Origin: an uncultured Nitrososphaerota archaeon
GTDB taxonomy: Archaea; Asgardarchaeota; Njordarchaeia; Njordarchaeales; Njordarchaeaceae
Assembly (NCBI GenBank): GCA_964518475.1
Contig: CAZFGR010000001.1
Span: 160,001-224,000, forward strand
Length of the DNA stretch: 64,000 bases
Direction: 5' to 3'
This document shows, one piece after another, positions 14,572-23,002 of the stretch. Position numbers and translations under genes: made by a program. The stretch's first letter is position 1. The number at the start of each line of letters is the position of its first letter. The notes under the pieces were generated by a model. That model worked only from the letters and a program-made list of their open reading frames with translations, had not been told where the DNA came from and made no database searches.

Positions 14572-15258
14572 TCATTTTTTCTCTATGCATTCGCGAAAAT
14601 GTTTAAAATTTATCTTCGAAGGCTCAATAATTCTCTCTCTGCATATGATTTCATGAAGCACACTTAAGGCTTTTAATAATCGTTTCATTCTGTTCTTAGT
14701 TCTTTCAAGTAGGTTATTCGCAATGTCTATAATCCTATATAAGTATTCTTTTTCGACTAATAATCCATTAAATTTCGTAGCTACAGGCAAATACATTTTT
14801 TCAGTACTAGTAAAATCCATTATTACGTGCCCTTTATTATGATTGATTGCTCGGATCCCAGAATCCTTAAAACCTAGAAATCTAGCTAATTTAATAAAGA
14901 AAGATGCCCAATCAATACTGCTTACTGCAACAGCTACGATCATACCTTCCAACTTTAGCCACACGATACCTTTTGGTTCGTAATTTTCCAGAATATTCCA
15001 CACAACATCGGGCTTAACTGGTGAGTGCCAACGAGCAACCTTTACACTATCCTTTTTGCTTCCCGTGTAAGGAATATCTATTAGAAGTATTCTTCCAGAA
15101 CACGAAGATGTAGTATATGCAAATGGTAGAAGATTAATCATGTTTAATAAGGGTATAATATCCTCATCTACTTCTCCACGCTCGATAGCTTGCGAGAGTC
15201 TTCTTATGAAAACTTTCTTTCTTTGAATGAACTCTCGCGATATTCTAAAGGTCTCCAT
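14572..15258 (-). CDS. taw3: tRNA wybutosine-pathway methyltransferase Taw3/TYW3
   Basis: GEVDEDIIPLL, YTTSSCSGRI, GFKDSGI. Confidence 0.92.
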   Translation of the reverse strand: METFRISREFIQRKKVFIRRLSQAIERGEVDEDIIPLLNMINLLPFAYTTSSCSGRILLIDIPYTGSKKDSVKVARWHSPVKPDVVWNILENYEPKGIVWLKLEGMIVAVAVSSIDWASFFIKLARFLGFKDSGIRAINHNKGHVIMDFTSTEKMYLPVATKFNGLLVEKEYLYRIIDIANNLLERTKNRMKRLLKALSVLHEIICRERIIEPSKINFKHFRECIEKK

Positions 15259-15349
15259 ACTTACACCAAAAAAGGGAAGAGATAAAAATTCTTTAAGGTT
15301 TTGGAACAATATCTTATTAAAGATTGAGATTTATCGATTAGATTATGGC

Positions 15350-15405: not shown

Positions 15406-18267
15406 CTATCTTTGCCAAAAAACTCTCGTCCTGAAGTACGCAGCTTCTCTCTTACGCAACTCTCTTATTAGCGCTGATCGATCCTCGGCATATCGTTTTA
15501 AAATCTCTATTGCTTGTTTTGGGCCTATTCCCCTAGTTGCTACTGTTATTGCTGTTAATTCTTTATAGGTTTGTAGGAATCTACTTATTTGCTCAGCTAA
15601 TATCAGCTTTTCAACCTCTTTTGCACTTAGCTTCATTTTCTTTTTAAGCTTATCAATTATCATTGGTAACTCTTTTTCATGTTTCTTTGAAACAACAATT
15701 CTCGTTGAATCACACCGCGGACATTTAAGAAGAACATCTGAAACTGGTCTAATCTCTTTATAACCACATGATAAGCAAAGATAGAGAACTTCTTTTCTTA
15801 AGAGCCTCTCCTCATATTTTCTGATGACTAGTTTATCTAGGTCCCTAACAATCACCTGTGGCGTTACTGGTAGGGCCATACCGAGAGGTGAGAGACCACG
15901 TACAAACCAAATATTTATTTGCCCCTCATCAATTTTAAGGAGCATTTCTCTCGTGTGTTTGAGATCTAGATTGTAAAAAATATACTCATGAACAGCCTCT
16001 GCAAAAACCGGTGTGTCAATGTACTCACTTAGTATTCTCGCTAATTTCGTTTTAGATAAGTAAGTCTCGCTTTTTACGAGCCCAAACCGTTTCAAAACTT
16101 GAAGAAAATACCACATTACCTCGTTAAGCTTATTTTCTCTGACTATCTCTATCAGAAATTTCTTCAACGATGTTAGATCCCTAGCATAGTCTATTAAGGT
16201 ATTGAACGCTTCTTCTAAAGCTGTTATAAGAAAATCCTCGCGTAAGTAGAATGTTCGGTAAAGAAAGAATTGAATACGATAAGCGTCACTGTCAAACTCG
16301 GTCATGGGAAAGTTAGGATTCTCGGATAATAATGCAGCTAATAAAATAGCGAGTGTCCTATTTATGTTCGTACCGAAAGGAGAATGAATAATTACTATTC
16401 CCTTAATTTCGTCGATCTCTACTACAATGTTTTTATCGTCCGGAATCGGTCGATCCTTCGGATAACTTTCAGCAATTCCTTTTAACCATTTTTTAGCAAC
16501 GGGAGAGAAGTAACTCTCTTTCAAAGTCTCTTCAAAATTTATCCTCCAAGTTTTTCTGATCTTACCAACTTCTTGCGCCACCTCAAACGAGACAGGAAGG
16601 AGCTCCCCTGTCCACTTAGGCGGAACGGCTTCAATATTGGCAGGAGAGACGAAAACAGCTTTTTTCTCAGCATTAATCTCAAGTACTTCTCTAGGAATAC
16701 CAGCTAAAAGGAAGTGATCTCCTACTTCAGTTTCCAATACGAATTTCTCATCTACTTCTCCAATCTTTCTTCCTTCCTCAATATCAATGACGTCATATTT
16801 CAAAACGGAGGGGATTGTTGAAACATTCTCAAAATAATAACTTAATGCACCTTTTCTGAGAATTATCCGTCCTCGCTCTCTAATAATTAACCTACAGCGT
16901 TGTTCTAAGAAGTTTAGTACCCATTTGAAATCTTCTATTGAAAGCTCTCTAAATGGGTATGCTCTTTTTATTACCTGGTAAACCTCCGATTCTCTCGGAT
17001 AAACTCCTCGATCTAAATATTTTTCCCGTACAATTCCGATTATCTGATGAGCCAGCACGTCATAACTTACGTCTATTACTTTTAAAGGCTCTAATATCCC
17101 CTTCTTGATTAGTCTAGCAATAGCCAACGATTCATATAGATCATCAATTGTCGAAGCTATTATAACTCCCCGAGTTATTAACGATATTCTATGACCAGAT
17201 CGCCCTATTCGCTGAAGCGCTGTCTCAACACGTCGCGGACTCATTACCTGAATTACTAATCCTATCTCTCCAATATCTATTCCAAGCTCCAACGAGGATG
17301 TAGCTATGACACATTTGAGATTTCCTTCTCTGAAATCTCGTTCAATTCCCACTCTTAATTCTCTACTTAGAGAGCTATGATGAATAGCAAAAGGGAAGCG
17401 TGCATATTTCTTCATATAAAGCCCAAGTAGTTCTGCTAGATCTCTTGTATTTGTGAAAACCAGTACCTTACCCCTTTCTTTATCTACGTACTCAACAATT
17501 TTTCGAGCTATCTCGGCCACATTGACTCTTATTCCGAGACCGAAAATATTGGGCGCAGGGGATAACTCTGGTTTTACAGCATCTATTTTCAAATGAATTT
17601 TTTTATATTCCTTTGTTTCAATTATTTTTCCGCCTCTACCTCCCGTGATAAACTCCAATACTTCTCGAGGATTTTGTACAGTCGCGCTGAGGGCGATTAT
17701 TGATAGATCCCGTTGTGCTAATTCCCTCAGTCTCTCTAAACCCACAGCTAATTGGCAACCTCTCTTATTATCAACAAGAGCATGTACTTCATCTATTATA
17801 ACCCAGCGAACATTTTTCAGATATGATCTAATTCTCTTTCCACATAGAATAGATTGGAAAGATTCTGGTGTTGTGATAAGAATTTGAGGAGGTTTTTTTG
17901 CCTGCCTACTTTTCGCTGACTTGGGAGTATCGCTGTGTCTGACTTCAATAGTTATGCCTAAGGCATTTCCGATCTCAACTAATCTCTTGAAAATATCCCT
18001 ATTAAGCGATCGGAGAGGAGTTATGTAAAGTACTAAGATTCCCTTCTCTTTTATCCCTTCCTTACTCAGTAGTATGTGTAAGATAGGAAAAATTGCAGCT
18101 TCGGTCTTTCCAGCGCCAGTGGGGGCGATGAGTAGAAAATTGCCTCGAGGATTCCTAAGTATCTCTGGTATTGCTAATTCTTGTATTTTTGTCGGTTTTT
18201 TGTATCCAAATTTTCTTAGTATACTTTTCAACCTCTCGTCTAACAAGTCAAATACTTGCCTCTCCAC
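15406..18267 (-). CDS. lhr: Lhr-family SF2 helicase with C-terminal Zn ribbon
   Basis: APTGAGKT, DEVH, SAT, ATSSLELGIDIG, QRIGRSGH; C-terminal CxxC...CxxC. Confidence 0.93.
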   Translation of the reverse strand: MERQVFDLLDERLKSILRKFGYKKPTKIQELAIPEILRNPRGNFLLIAPTGAGKTEAAIFPILHILLSKEGIKEKGILVLYITPLRSLNRDIFKRLVEIGNALGITIEVRHSDTPKSAKSRQAKKPPQILITTPESFQSILCGKRIRSYLKNVRWVIIDEVHALVDNKRGCQLAVGLERLRELAQRDLSIIALSATVQNPREVLEFITGGRGGKIIETKEYKKIHLKIDAVKPELSPAPNIFGLGIRVNVAEIARKIVEYVDKERGKVLVFTNTRDLAELLGLYMKKYARFPFAIHHSSLSRELRVGIERDFREGNLKCVIATSSLELGIDIGEIGLVIQVMSPRRVETALQRIGRSGHRISLITRGVIIASTIDDLYESLAIARLIKKGILEPLKVIDVSYDVLAHQIIGIVREKYLDRGVYPRESEVYQVIKRAYPFRELSIEDFKWVLNFLEQRCRLIIRERGRIILRKGALSYYFENVSTIPSVLKYDVIDIEEGRKIGEVDEKFVLETEVGDHFLLAGIPREVLEINAEKKAVFVSPANIEAVPPKWTGELLPVSFEVAQEVGKIRKTWRINFEETLKESYFSPVAKKWLKGIAESYPKDRPIPDDKNIVVEIDEIKGIVIIHSPFGTNINRTLAILLAALLSENPNFPMTEFDSDAYRIQFFLYRTFYLREDFLITALEEAFNTLIDYARDLTSLKKFLIEIVRENKLNEVMWYFLQVLKRFGLVKSETYLSKTKLARILSEYIDTPVFAEAVHEYIFYNLDLKHTREMLLKIDEGQINIWFVRGLSPLGMALPVTPQVIVRDLDKLVIRKYEERLLRKEVLYLCLSCGYKEIRPVSDVLLKCPRCDSTRIVVSKKHEKELPMIIDKLKKKMKLSAKEVEKLILAEQISRFLQTYKELTAITVATRGIGPKQAIEILKRYAEDRSALIRELRKREAAYFRTRVFWQR

Positions 18268-18692
18268 TATTTTGCCTCCTCATAGATTTCCTGCAGAAGC
18301 GCTTCTGCAAAATTTCCTAACGTATTTATTAGAACCTTATCACTCAGAATACTTTGCACTATTCTCTTTATTCTCTCTGGCGACTCTCTAAGCACGTCCT
18401 CTACAACATCTCTTTCATCGAAAGGCAATAAGTTGAGACATTCTCTACTTAATTTATAAATCTCCAAAAAGCTCTGTAATATGATTTCCTTCTTCCCCTC
18501 TCTACAAGCTTCCGACAGTTTACTAAGCATATATCTTAGTTTAAGCATGTATTCTGGAGGGATCCGTTCATCATCAAGAACACTTTCTAAGACAAAAGAT
18601 ATAGCGTCTAGAAGTTCTAAGAAAAGTTGTTGAGTTTTTCTCAATATATCTTCCCTCCTGAGCCTCTGGGGAGAACTCAGAGCTGGTGCCAT
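18267..18692 (-). CDS. Hypothetical helical protein
   Basis: 141-aa ORF whose stop abuts the lhr start. Confidence 0.65.
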   Translation of the reverse strand: MAPALSSPQRLRREDILRKTQQLFLELLDAISFVLESVLDDERIPPEYMLKLRYMLSKLSEACREGKKEIILQSFLEIYKLSRECLNLLPFDERDVVEDVLRESPERIKRIVQSILSDKVLINTLGNFAEALLQEIYEEAK

Positions 18693-18802: not shown

Positions 18803-18886
18803 CTTGTTACTGCTGGATAACAAAATTAGTACCTGTTCTTAAAAAATAAGTTGGTTTATTCTGTAAGGGACCAAATCATAATTCAG

Positions 18887-19438
18887 TTAGTGATATATAA
18901 TAAAATCTTTTTTCTTAAAATTGCTTTTACCCGCCACCGCTAAGAAAACCATGAAAGCCTGTAAAAAATGCGCAATTCCCGCTTTTCCTTTGAAATTAAA
19001 CCACCACGCTCTAAAAACCGGTGGCATACAAAAAGGTTTATAATTAGTCCACTTTCGAAGCATCATTATGAATTCTCTATCCCATCTAGGATCTCCTATT
19101 GTGGGAGGATGTTTAGGATAACTTATTGGGACGTTTATTGTTACTGTTAACCAGTATTCTCGTCCCATATTAAAGAGTTCACCAACATTAACATCTACAA
19201 GGAATCTTTGCGGATTATTCTTTGCGATACGGAGATTCTTGAAAGGTACATTAGCATTGAATAATCTCCATGTTTCGAATACTCTAATTTCTTCCTTGAC
19301 TCTGTCGAGCCATTTATTTGTACGTGGAGAAGCTATTATTTGAAGCGATGGGATATCTGTATAGAAATTCCACACGAGAGGAATACCACGAGCTTTTTTC
19401 TGCCTTAAGACGATCTTTAGAGACGGGAGGTCTTTCAA
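18887..19438 (-). CDS. UFC1-like (UFM1-conjugating-type) E2 enzyme
   Basis: [11 protein letters not shown]...[31 protein letters not shown]...GIAHFL are collinear with UFC1 motifs; Cys at the catalytic position. Confidence 0.75.
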   Translation of the reverse strand: [183 protein letters not shown]

Positions 19439-19818
19439 CGTCTAACTCCTTCTTTTAATGTACTGAAATCTATACTTCCCCTTATAGCTGGCTTTATTAG
19501 TTTTGCCCCTTTTTTGAAACATAAATCACAGTGTTCTTCATTATTCTCGTTAACAACTTCAAAATCGTTCCACACATTTTTCTTACCCCGTTCATTTAAA
19601 CATTCATCACAGACCCAGATGCCTCTCTCTATAGGTATAACGACAAAAGATGCTTCACTTTCACAAATATCACACTGCACCATATCCTCACTTTCGACTT
19701 TTAGAATAAAGCTATCTTTCAGCGCGCCTCTGAGAGTAAGCAGGATTAAACAATCTGGACATACATATGTTTTATCAGAAATTCTCTCTCCAGAATTAAT
19801 GGTTATTTCATTAAGCAT
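19435..19818 (-). CDS. Tandem Zn-finger protein (four CxxC pairs)
   Basis: CPDC..CDIC and CDEC..CDLC in two similar units of about 45 aa; stop overlaps the start of the E2-like gene. Confidence 0.75.
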   Translation of the reverse strand: MLNEITINSGERISDKTYVCPDCLILLTLRGALKDSFILKVESEDMVQCDICESEASFVVIPIERGIWVCDECLNERGKKNVWNDFEVVNENNEEHCDLCFKKGAKLIKPAIRGSIDFSTLKEGVRR

Positions 19819-19937
19819 TTAGTTTCCCTCAGTATATTTCATGTTTTAATAAACTCTTGCCACATGAATCTTTAGGAGACGCATTTTATTTAAATTACTT
19901 TTGGATTAAAAATCAGCCAGTCTCTGGGTGATAGTAT

Positions 19938-20051: not shown

Positions 20052-20243
20052 AACCATTTTTTAAGCACTCAAATCGTTATCTTATATCTTGCTATTTTCT
20101 AAATTTCTTGTTCTGAAAATGTGCCTACTTCATCAATTATTAATTATCTTTAAAACCGTTAATCATTAAAAGTATTTTAACTCAGTTTGATTTTAAGAAA
20201 GATCCTTATTAAAGATCATTGCTTAGCTACTGAGAGGATCACA

Positions 20244-22115
20244 ATGTCATTGCAAGGTATATTAAAGGGTATTCTTAGAAAAGAAGAAAGCTTTGAGCGA
20301 AGATGTAAGTATCTTGAACGTCTTCTCGATGCTGACATAAAGCAACTTGAAACAAATATTCTTGGTATAACAAAAACTATTGAACTAATAGAGTACAGAG
20401 TACGAGCAGGAGATGTTCAGGAAAAGGTAGTTCTAGTAGAATTTCTAAGAGTATTAAGCGAAGTCTCTGTGCGATCACAAAGATTAAGCTCGGTGGTATT
20501 GGATTTCCTCATTAGTCGTTTGAAAAAATTGGCTGATTTTCTAATAGCAGATGACTACTTATTATCAAACTATATTGCTGCTCTTCGAATTCCTCTAAAA
20601 AATGAGACTTGGCGAGTTTTTGAGTTAATTGATACTTTAAGAGGTATCGTGCTCACAGACAGATTTGAGGAATCTAGAAAAGCTGTTTTAAGAACTTTAA
20701 ATGATATAGCCTGGAACCTCCCTTACATAATAAGTGATTTTAAAGATGCACTCCCGAAACTGCTCAAAGAATCGCCACCAGATATAAAATCGCTTACTAT
20801 TCATTTTATAGCCCGTATCCTTTCCAGAAATCTCTATGCAACAAAATCTCTCATAACAGAGCTTCTAGCCAGTGATCTAAGCCTTATTTCGGAGATACTA
20901 GACGTAGCCACGTACTTGCCTATTCCTCTTCAACACAAAGAAATTGCTGAATCCTTCTTTAATGTAATCTATGAGAGATATTTAGTTTCCTCTGAACCGA
21001 GTGAACAGATGAAATTGCTTAGGGAACTCTCTAAGATCATTAGAATTAATCCCTTCCCAGATCTTCAAAATAAGTTTCTAGAAATCGCTCTTGATAAACT
21101 ACTTAAAGGAGGAGCCGAAAATCTTGACATTAAGGCGAATTTATTAGAAATTTTATCGTCAATATCTTGGCATCCAGAGGTTCGTATTGATAAATTAGTT
21201 GATACATTAATTAATGCTCTTCACAATCCATTAGAAAGAGAAGAGATCCGAGGAAAAGTTATAGAAGCTTTAATGAAGACGATCATTCGTTATCCTCAAT
21301 TCATTTCAGAAGCGTATTCTGCCCTGCTAGATGCTTACGAGTTATGCTCATCCGCAGAGAATAAAACACGTTTAATAAAGAGTTTACAAGCATTGCTTAA
21401 CCTTGTCCGTGACAGAGCTCTTGCATTAAGAACTACGACATTATTGCTTAACATCATGCAGGATGTAGGGGAAGAAGAAAGTGTTAGGGTTAATGCTTCT
21501 GAGTTATTAACAGAACTATCAAAACGTTTTCCAGACATTATAGCAGAGTTGAGTTCTAATATTCTGTCTATTTTCAATTCATTAAACGAATGGGATTTAA
21601 GGGATTCCCTCGTAAGAATTGCTGGAGAAGCTGTAAAGAAAGGATTTTCGGATGAATATTTAGTGGACATTCTGGTAAATGCTCTTAGTGATGAGTGGAT
21701 CTATAGTACTGCTCTTGATTATCTAGTCGTCTTGGCTTATAACAAACCTGAAAGCCTACTCGAAAAAATATCGAAACTAAGAAAATTCTTAGAAGTGATT
21801 AGTTCTGTGGAAAAGGAAATCCTTGAAGAGGAAAATATGGAGGCTTACTATTACCATATTGAAACACCCAAGCGTATTTTCTATAGAATTCTGCGAGAAA
21901 TAGTAACAAGAACTAAACAAGCACTAGAGGAGATTCTAGAAATATTGATTATCGGGTCAAAAGAAGAAACTAATGAGATAATTATTAGAGATATTGCTCA
22001 GACAATAAAAGATATCATCGAAATCGATGAAGAATTCAAAGAAAAACTTAATTTGAATGAGTTAAATCCCCTTCTACTAGATACACTTAAACAGTTCGGT
22101 TTAAATATAAGTTAA
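20244..22115 (+). CDS. HEAT/ARM-repeat alpha-solenoid protein
   Basis: Repeated helical units (ESRKAVLRTL, EIRGKVIEAL, SVRVNASELL, DLRDSLVRIAG). Confidence 0.75.
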   Translation: MSLQGILKGILRKEESFERRCKYLERLLDADIKQLETNILGITKTIELIEYRVRAGDVQEKVVLVEFLRVLSEVSVRSQRLSSVVLDFLISRLKKLADFLIADDYLLSNYIAALRIPLKNETWRVFELIDTLRGIVLTDRFEESRKAVLRTLNDIAWNLPYIISDFKDALPKLLKESPPDIKSLTIHFIARILSRNLYATKSLITELLASDLSLISEILDVATYLPIPLQHKEIAESFFNVIYERYLVSSEPSEQMKLLRELSKIIRINPFPDLQNKFLEIALDKLLKGGAENLDIKANLLEILSSISWHPEVRIDKLVDTLINALHNPLEREEIRGKVIEALMKTIIRYPQFISEAYSALLDAYELCSSAENKTRLIKSLQALLNLVRDRALALRTTTLLLNIMQDVGEEESVRVNASELLTELSKRFPDIIAELSSNILSIFNSLNEWDLRDSLVRIAGEAVKKGFSDEYLVDILVNALSDEWIYSTALDYLVVLAYNKPESLLEKISKLRKFLEVISSVEKEILEEENMEAYYYHIETPKRIFYRILREIVTRTKQALEEILEILIIGSKEETNEIIIRDIAQTIKDIIEIDEEFKEKLNLNELNPLLLDTLKQFGLNIS

Positions 22116-22159: not shown

Positions 22160-23002
22160 ATGATAAGAGCCGTAGCAATATATGATGCGTTAGATAATCA
22201 GATATTTTATACAGACTTTGCACAATATGCACTAAACCTTTCATTTATAACAAACTCATTATTCGAAATGAAGGAACTTATCAGTAAGCAGTTAGAAGAT
22301 ATCACTATAAGCAGATATCGCGTAGGCGCATTATTTGAGCCCGATTATACAATAGTAGTATTAGCCGATAGAACTAATAGGAAGGAAGAATTAGAAGAAT
22401 TTACTCTGAATCTAAACATACTTGTAAAGAAGATATTTGGGGAGGATATTTCGAGCGAAAGCTTTCAAGATGAAGAAAAAGTTGATAAATTCTCTGATGA
22501 ATTAGAGAAACTCGTTGGTAAAATACCTGTTAAGATAACCTTTGTAGGATCTGGTGGTGTTGGAAAAACTACTATGGTAAGACTACTAGCGAGAGGAATA
22601 ATAACGTCCGAGTACACACCAACAATTTTTGCAGATGTCGAACATATAGACGTTCTTATCCCACCATTCACGATATCTCTTTTCACAGTAGCTGGACAGG
22701 AAAGATATAGAAAAACATGGGATATTGTCTCTGAAGCCACAGATATCGTAGTACTCGTACTTGACAGCACGAAAAGTAATCTAAAAGAAACAAGAGAAGT
22801 TATTTATCCAAAGATCCGCCAACTAGCTCCCTATGCACGATATGTGGCTATTGCAAATAAACAGGACTTACCTGAAGCATTGCCGCCAGCGATTATTGAA
22901 GAGGAAATAGGACTACCCACCTATGGAATGATCGCGATAAGAGAAGACGCTCGAGAAAGGTTATCAACAATTATTAAACAGATATTAACCACGATTCCTT
23001 AA
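22160..23002 (+). CDS. Small Ras/Arf-like GTPase with N-terminal longin/roadblock-like domain
   Basis: G1 GSGGVGKT, G2 PT, G3 variant TVAGQ, G4 NKQD; N-terminal alpha/beta domain of about 120 aa. Confidence 0.85.
   Translation: MIRAVAIYDALDNQIFYTDFAQYALNLSFITNSLFEMKELISKQLEDITISRYRVGALFEPDYTIVVLADRTNRKEELEEFTLNLNILVKKIFGEDISSESFQDEEKVDKFSDELEKLVGKIPVKITFVGSGGVGKTTMVRLLARGIITSEYTPTIFADVEHIDVLIPPFTISLFTVAGQERYRKTWDIVSEATDIVVLVLDSTKSNLKETREVIYPKIRQLAPYARYVAIANKQDLPEALPPAIIEEEIGLPTYGMIAIREDARERLSTIIKQILTTIP

Follow-up and report, generated by a model that had tools for sequence, protein, structure and literature searches.

UFC1 is the carrier enzyme (E2) of the eukaryotic UFM1 protein-tagging pathway, and has Thr-Ala-Lys (TAK) at the position where ordinary E2s have the motif HPN. 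The E1 of the pathway, UBA5, binds UFM1 and UFC1 through a long C-terminal tail. As far as we are aware, UFMylation is considered to have been invented by eukaryotes. An evolutionary survey observed UFC1, UFM1, and UFSP2 in eukaryotes only (Picchianti et al. 2023, PMC10183829). Structure-based searches have since identified Ufm1 homologs in nine Asgard clades (Koestlbacher et al., bioRxiv 10.1101/2024.07.03.601958; Nat Microbiol 2026, PMC12962969); the text of neither version mentions UFC1, UBA5, or the string "conjugat." A literature search for the full name of UFC1 together with archaea, with subscription papers outside its scope, found no paper, and a public protein database already holds automatic matches to the UFC1 profile PF08694 for the archaeal proteins considered here.

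Among described archaeal systems, the ubiquitin-type E1/E2/RING-E3 operons of Caldiarchaeum and Asgard archaea resemble the one described here in comprising an archaeal E1-E2 cascade, a small zinc protein, and a JAMM-type protease. They differ in that their E2s are canonical UBC-type enzymes and their modifiers ubiquitin-like, all encoded in a single operon, whereas the Njord system has a UFC1-type E2, a UFM1-type modifier, and a UBA5-type E1, the genes for which are dispersed. The DNA analyzed is a 64-kb stretch, hereafter the window, corresponding to bases 160001-224000 of a 402-kb contig in a genome of 2.33 Mb that is 91 % complete. The MAGs of its nearest named relatives are labeled Candidatus Njordarchaeota, Njordarchaeales, or Njordarchaeia (Asgard), with one labeled Korarchaeota. 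Our preferred reading, which we hold to be reasonably probable, is that one gene of the window encodes a catalytically competent UFC1-family E2 of a Njord-group Asgard archaeon and that the adjacent gene encodes a zinc protein that would act as its dedicated partner.

Family, fold, and active site of the E2

The E2 gene ("NjA" clade) lies at 18887-19438, the exact coordinates given in a first-pass annotation made from the sequence without database searches; it is on the minus strand and encodes 183 aa between a TTG start codon at 19438 and a TAA stop codon at 18887. That annotation also described the product as UFC1-like, and the description is borne out. The Pfam UFC1 profile (PF08694) matches residues 27-160 over positions 6-134 of its 155, with a score of 30.1 bits (E 4.4e-7) that exceeds the curated cut-off of 25 bits. 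No other Pfam family was matched at E<=1, and a comparison with PF00179 (UQ_con), the canonical E2 profile, likewise gave nothing at E<=1. All 26 matches found in a sequence search of the PDB are UFC1 (best E 4.4e-6), and the resulting alignment reproduces the motif pairs that the annotation had listed, namely I-P-S-L-Q with I-P-V-L-K, K-E-E, Y-P, P-F-C-M-P-P with K-I-C-L-T-D, and G-I-A-H with G-L-A-H. A profile search of 1.84 billion representatives returned 23 proteins at E<=0.001, genuine eukaryotic UFC1s included, and the hhalign comparison of 18 archaeal orthologs with four eukaryotic UFC1s gave a probability of 97.7 % (E 1.5e-12). Identity between the window E2 and eukaryotic UFC1 is 22-27 %.

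The fold predicted by AlphaFold2 (pLDDT 83.6, pTM 0.77) points in the same direction. With Foldseek, UFC1 fills the top 28 rows listed (E 2.6e-6 to 4.9e-4), canonical E2s starting at E 7e-3, and with VIA-align, UFC1 entries reach Z 11.4-15.2 (the best about 14-15) versus 8.9 for the top canonical E2. The VIA alignment to UFC1 covers 141 residues at an rmsd of about 3.2 and 26 % identity. The likeness to eukaryotic UFC1 (PF08694; PDB 2Z6O, 3EVX, 8BZR) takes in the E2 core and the UFC1-specific N-terminal part. On the evidence of profile, sequence, and fold, the window E2 is a genuine member of the UFC1 family, apart from the canonical UBC enzymes; profile and structure searches of UFC1 versus UBC, which the annotation had named as the way to check its claim, both placed UFC1 ahead.

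Cys137, the sole Cys of the protein (codon TGT, 19028-19030, minus strand), is presumed to be the active-site residue that forms the thioester. Its column was located by phmmer, MAFFT, and hhalign: it pairs with Cys116 of UFC1 in the hhalign alignment and with the Cys of K-I-C-L-T-D in that from phmmer, such that by sequence and profile alignment it falls on the UFC1 active site. In a MAFFT alignment of 27 archaeal and eukaryotic relatives, which takes in three archaeal paralog groups as well as eukaryotes, the invariant columns are R46, E50, Y107, P108, C137, G154, and H157. The catalytic Cys that the annotation had called intact is thus conserved in 27 of 27 sequences. Shared with UFC1, besides this column, are an R-x-K-E-E helix, Y-P, G-(I/L)-A-H, and the absence of HPN. 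The last of these had also been claimed from the sequence, and a scan confirms it; an H-P-P at residues 110-112 is, according to hhalign, part of a Y-P-x-x-P-P region and not at the HPN position.

Several features of the catalytic region distinguish the window E2 from eukaryotic UFC1. T106-A107-K108 of UFC1, whose Thr and Lys do not vary among the four eukaryotic UFC1s compared, faces Phe123-Ile124-Met125 in the hhalign alignment, and these three positions vary among the archaeal orthologs. Ahead of Cys137 there are a 4-residue insert (129-132, containing the invariant Thr131) and a helix confidently predicted by AlphaFold2 at residues 121-130, and around it the sequence Pro-Phe-Cys-Met-Pro-Pro is a signature of the window-type clade. 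With TAK missing, and with the insert and predicted helix ahead of the Cys, the geometry of catalysis may depart from that of UFC1. Because TAK is not kept, the protein is filed in the wider UFC1 family, outside the strict eukaryotic ortholog group. Among proteins of the UFC1 kind it represents an archaeal variant, set apart by its catalytic-loop architecture and by the co-inherited zinc partner discussed below. The N-terminal 25 residues (window 19364-19438) are modeled with low confidence, yet P5, L7, W23, and N24 are invariant in close orthologs; this segment is possibly a short linear motif for a partner, either the E1 or the zinc protein.

The absence of TAK raises the question of whether the protein is an enzyme at all. 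Pseudo-E2s of the UEV/RWD type have the E2 fold without the catalytic Cys, and a non-catalytic protein of this kind, forming no thioester, might bind a ubiquitin-like protein (Ubl) or scaffold the zinc protein. Both oxyanion-type motifs, HPN and TAK, are indeed missing, and one paralog gives a weak match to RWD. We nevertheless regard such a role as distinctly improbable. The Cys is present in 27 of 27 relatives, exactly on the active-site column of UFC1, and its invariance across three archaeal paralog groups and eukaryotes argues against a pseudo-E2; furthermore, it is the only Cys that the protein has, and on either side of it the G-I-A-H and Y-P motifs of UFC1 persist. As small and probably thermostable proteins, the catalytically competent enzymes that we favor would offer a simple system for studying E2 chemistry that proceeds with neither HPN nor TAK.

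The putative zinc-protein partner and the surrounding genes

Immediately upstream of the E2, at 19435-19818 on the minus strand, lies a gene for a protein of 127 aa with eight invariant Cys residues and predicted zinc binding. The two genes overlap in the tetranucleotide TTGA (19435-19438, minus strand, read directly), in which the TGA stop of the zinc protein lies over the TTG start of the E2, an arrangement that suggests translational coupling of the two. An overlap of a few bases recurs in the orthologs, as judged from the coordinates of 12 genomes. Two further elements, both read by eye, are compatible with a possible two-gene transcription unit: a Shine-Dalgarno-like GAGGGA (19825-19830, minus strand) 7 nt ahead of the ATG of the zinc protein, and a run of six T (18841-18846, minus strand) about 40 nt past the E2 stop, which is possibly an archaeal terminator. 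The pair is no assembly artifact, because fragments identical to this stretch occur in contigs of other hydrothermal-vent metagenomes, two of which bridge the gene junction with 0 differences.

The eight Cys residues of the zinc protein form four CxxC pairs (C20/23, C49/52, C70/73, and C97/100, in an alignment of 12 sequences), and a CxxC-x23-25-CxxC unit is tandemly repeated within the protein, scoring 48 against 21 +/- 4 in shuffled sequences. Pfam gives zinc-ribbon and RING-type matches, all of them sub-threshold; the RING matches are found in four of the 12 zinc proteins, with a best E of 9.8e-4. An atlas search returned generic zinc-ribbon clusters as weak leads. RING-type E3s are characterized by a cross-braced zinc site of the C3HC4 type with eight ligands, and the tandem CxxC repeat appears to fit two sequential zinc modules better than it does a cross-braced RING.

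The zinc protein is encoded immediately upstream of the E2 ortholog in all 12 E2-bearing genomes of the order, the pair occurring in 12 of 14 genomes from that order. When 400 Asgard genomes were searched with a profile of the zinc protein, one copy was recovered from each of these same 12 and no credible match from elsewhere, the lone extra being weak (E 4e-4) and interrupted by stop codons. This strict co-inheritance of the zinc protein and E2 is a new, locus-specific trait, and the possession of an eight-Cys zinc partner is a further point on which the window E2 departs from eukaryotic UFC1. We infer that the zinc protein is a dedicated partner of the E2, acting perhaps as an E3-like adaptor, a substrate recruiter, or a bridge between E1 and E2. 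This co-inherited protein offers a concrete candidate for a factor of the UFM1 pathway without counterpart in eukaryotes.

The other neighbors do not share this history. A gene for a 141-aa helical protein of no known family (18267-18692, minus strand) lies downstream of the E2, and where it ends there begins a large Lhr-type helicase (15406-18267, minus strand) with DEAD, WH_Lhr, and DEAD_assoc domains, after which comes the wybutosine methyltransferase TYW3 (14572-15309, minus strand). The adjacency of these three genes to the E2 is not conserved outside the genus, and the 141-aa gene, kept within the genus only, was accordingly rejected as a member of the locus. On the other side, a 642-aa helical-repeat protein (20187-22115), which matches no family, adjoins the pair in one genome of family f3 of the order and not in another, and was also rejected. 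Within the genus, it is itself adjoined by a gene on the plus strand (22160-23002) for a 280-aa protein, typical of the Asgard "eukaryotic signature" type, in which an N-terminal extension of some 110 aa precedes a C-terminal small GTPase domain of the Arf/Ras type (Arf 60 bits, Ras 45.5 bits). For the Lhr helicase, the 141-aa protein, the helical-repeat protein, and the small GTPase alike, conservation beside the pair ends at the genus or at a single genome. A third rejected candidate, a gene for 249-251 aa, comes directly after the E2 in two f3 genomes (L029 5799-6548, minus strand; L030 7004-7759, plus strand) and has a homolog (C1:84214-84906, 27 % identity) about 95 kb away from the E2 in the genome of the window; a Pfam scan of the L029 copy was blank.

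E1s, modifiers, and JAMM-like proteins of the genome

The first-pass annotation raised the inference that an archaeal UFM1-type conjugation pathway may exist, and remarked that neither a Ubl nor an E1 gene is visible in the window. The remark was correct, as both types of gene are situated 111-136 kb upstream within the same contig (C1), and the inference gains support from them, in that they encode UBA5-like E1s and UFM1-like modifiers. The genome-wide search for pathway partners that it had proposed therefore succeeded in respect of the tags and the E1s, whereas the protease UFSP (PF07910) was not found over the cut-off.

According to a search with an ortholog profile, the genome encodes three UFC1-like E2s, these being the window copy and others at C1:24.2-24.7 kb and C1:74.0-74.4 kb. 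The first of these others sits in a complete minus-strand operon in which a JAMM-like gene (361 aa) comes first, then a ThiF-family E1 (272 aa), then this E2, and last a gene for a 96-aa protein that has the look of a modifier, with a conserved Leu-Gly followed by three residues. A second E1, of 255 aa, is part of a block comprising PriL, the E1, and a coiled-coil gene; next come a 103-aa protein that ends in Leu-Gly (L006 362-907, G000:C1:46726-47271) and, directly downstream of it, Sec61beta. Across 24 modifier sequences the terminal Leu-Gly never varies, whether it closes a mature protein or is trailed by 1-5 further residues. In one protein, P0033 (178 aa), the modifier and Sec61beta are fused, and the Sec61beta Pfam domain is recognized.

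Both E1s find their best PDB match in UBA5, with 92.8 and 96 bits versus 71.9 and 61.3 for ThiF, and neither reaches the cut-off of any NCBIfam ThiF/MoeB/UbaA model. Both retain the catalytic Cys motif, which the alignment of the second E1 to UBA5 covers as the stretch C-x-A-S-L-P-T-T. Because they are only 255-272 aa long, the archaeal E1s are without a C-terminal tail of the UBA5 type, in which respect they differ from the eukaryotic system.

The modifiers match neither Pfam families nor PDB sequences, and a search of the six-frame translation of the genome with the Pfam Ufm1 profile gave nothing at E<=1. Their likeness to UFM1 is one of predicted fold, the 103-aa protein being the one folded (pLDDT 83.7). 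For this model, the best Foldseek row is UFM1 (TM 0.85, rmsd 1.6), and the ten best VIA rows are all UFM1 at Z 10.6-12.2, with ubiquitin, SUMO, and ISG15 at about 9, a margin over ubiquitin that, for the model, is modest but consistent. The 103-aa protein fits the Asgard Ufm1-like proteins of PMC12962969, in both lineage and pathway. For the operon modifier, an atlas search gave ubiquitin/Rad60-SLD clusters at 0.85-0.87 as weak leads. The 361-aa operon protein was blank in Pfam and PDB sequence searches and is termed JAMM-like on account of an H-x-H...S-x-x-D-like motif, read by eye, and of a sub-threshold Prok-JAB match in a shorter relative from family f3.

Other expected components did not emerge. 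A search of the genome (91 % complete) brought up no canonical UQ_con E2 over the cut-off, and the UFC1-like proteins are therefore the only E2-fold enzymes detected in it. UFL1, DDRGK1, and UFSP (PF09743, PF09756, and PF07910) gave nothing over the cut-off at the same completeness; two of the four profiles (UQ_con, UFL1, DDRGK1, and UFSP) were also blank in controls, PF07910 being one, so that its search cannot show absence. The non-detection of UFL1-DDRGK1 may be another difference from eukaryotic UFC1 and its surroundings.

A combination of JAMM-like, E1, E2, and Ubl genes also recalls bacterial Bil/Bub operons, and this genome could on that account carry a prokaryotic defense-type Ubl system (Bil, Bub, or CBASS Cap2-like), the resemblance to UFC1 reflecting shared ancestry of the E2 fold. 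The E1s match PADLOC E1-E2 models at 56-71 bits, and bacterial Ubl structures figure among the fold matches of the modifier (Z 9.3-10.0). On the other hand, UFC1, UBA5, and UFM1 each rank above their bacterial counterparts; PADLOC, in a library of 2023 from which Bil/Bub E2 models may be missing, was blank for the E2, the zinc protein, the operon E2, the JAMM-like protein, and the modifier; and the genes are conserved and single-copy and stand among the housekeeping genes PriL, Sec61beta, Lhr, and TYW3, not in a variable island. A defense function is, in our estimation, very improbable.

The occurrence of the window E2 in the same genome as a UBA5-type E1 and a UFM1-type modifier instead suggests a cascade along the following lines. 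A UBA5-like E1, encoded elsewhere, would adenylate a UFM1-like modifier at its C-terminal Gly and load it onto the conserved Cys of the E1, the likeliest combination being the E1 of the PriL block with the 103-aa modifier encoded next to Sec61beta. From there the modifier would be handed to Cys137 of the window E2 and from there pass to its targets, with the co-translated zinc protein acting as partner of the E2. JAMM-type proteases may stand in for the cysteine protease UFSP. Because a UFC1-family E2 with its catalytic Cys, UBA5-like E1s, and UFM1-like modifiers share genomes, the whole core of E1, E2, and modifier may predate eukaryotes.

One point against assigning this role to the window E2 is that it adjoins no E1 or modifier gene. 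Physical linkage to an E1, a pro-modifier, and a JAMM-like gene belongs to its operon paralog, which could be the main E2 of the genus. The window E2 would then be a specialized side branch, with the zinc protein as its private substrate or regulator and the operon paralog responsible for bulk conjugation. The presence of three paralogs in the genome is in keeping with specialization, as are features peculiar to the clade of the window E2, namely P-F-C-M-P-P, an invariant Thr131, and L-P-x-L and W-N, both conserved near the N terminus. The genomes of family f3 suggest otherwise. The operon-type E2 has been seen in families f1 and f4 only and was not found in the five f3 genomes, which still keep an E1, a modifier, and the window-type E2. 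A broad UFC1 profile detects one gene per genome in each of these five, of the window type and with its zinc protein. The four f3 genomes that were searched for E1s and modifiers have one high-scoring E1 each (E 1e-67 to 1e-70), besides weaker ThiF-family matches, flanked by PriL and a coiled-coil gene as is the second E1 of the window's genome, and one modifier each, of the 103-aa type, beside a short JAMM-like gene. The window-type clade is, moreover, the one most widely kept in the order (12/14 genomes). We therefore rate the side-branch role as unlikely. The window-type E2 is apparently the sole UFC1-like E2 of the f3 genomes (75-83 % complete), where a single high-scoring E1 and a single tag accompany it, so that it probably forms the core E2 of the order's UFM1-like system, with the operon as an extra module.

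As to the f3 genes themselves, three of the four modifiers have 2-5 residues past the Leu-Gly and look like pro-forms. The JAMM-like genes (L046-L049) encode 232-246 aa; one scored 19 bits with Prok-JAB, under the cut-off, and the others match the JAMM-like protein of the operon by BLAST.

Paralogs, distribution, and descent of the family

The two paralogs of the window E2, at C1:24.2-24.7 kb and C1:74.0-74.4 kb (the latter with a short loop), belong to the same family and share its invariant Cys, R, E, Y-P, G, and H columns. They are otherwise distant from it, with 23-27 % identity, placement in separate clades, other neighbors, and no zinc partner. Among 400 sampled Asgard genomes, UFC1-like genes were found in 34, representing 18 of 85 genera, with strong matches in seven families. 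Orthologs of the window E2 itself occur in 11 other genomes of the order, at 32-61 % identity and with conserved local synteny.

A quick maximum-likelihood tree recovers the window-type clade with full support (SH-aLRT 100). The eukaryotic UFC1s form a long branch of their own, joined to the archaeal clades at weak forks. This separateness argues against recent transfer from eukaryotes, although it names no donor lineage. It is true that the closest structurally solved relatives are eukaryotic, as they would be for a gene recently acquired from a eukaryote or for a contaminant of the bin. The gene, however, sits on a 402-kb archaeal contig; its 11 orthologs span 32-61 % identity with local synteny kept; identity to eukaryotic UFC1 is as low as 22-27 %; and there are several deep archaeal clades, to which the eukaryotes are a separate long branch and not the parent group. 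Recent transfer or contamination is, on this evidence, scarcely credible.

A bolder reading of the same data may be put forward tentatively, as one that we find doubtful though by no means negligible. The zinc protein and E2 would constitute a minimal, pre-eukaryotic E2-E3 module that, together with an E1 linked to PriL and SMC and a modifier linked (in relatives fused) to Sec61beta, would be the mark of an ancestral UFMylation, older than the recruitment of UFL1-DDRGK1 and UFSP, whose site of action was the translocon, the ribosome, or the replication/SMC machinery. If true, Asgard archaea are the source of the entire UFM1-UBA5-UFC1 core.

Two other Asgard lineages have UFC1-like genes clustered with a gene for a UFM1-sized Leu-Gly protein and with E1, JAMM-like, AAA ATPase, and SMC genes. 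The clusters in question (L061, G245:C3:656000-674000; L062, G243:C36:1-16000) contain two or three UFC1-like E2s, a JAMM-like gene, a ThiF-family E1, a protein of 540-560 aa (an AAA ATPase in L061), and SMC, followed by two small genes; an 88-aa protein of L061 ends in Q-L-G-F. Each looks like a UFM1-like cascade that is physically tied to SMC genes. The family also occurs in fusions, carried by two metagenomic relatives. P0022 (456 aa) combines Roadblock/LC7 and Ras-family GTPase domains with a C-terminal UFC1-like domain, detected by the family profile at residues 311-446 (Pfam gives no UFC1 match for this protein), and P0026 (278 aa) joins an N-terminal domain of no family to a UFC1-like domain. 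These architectures hint at a link between small-GTPase signaling and this family of E2s.
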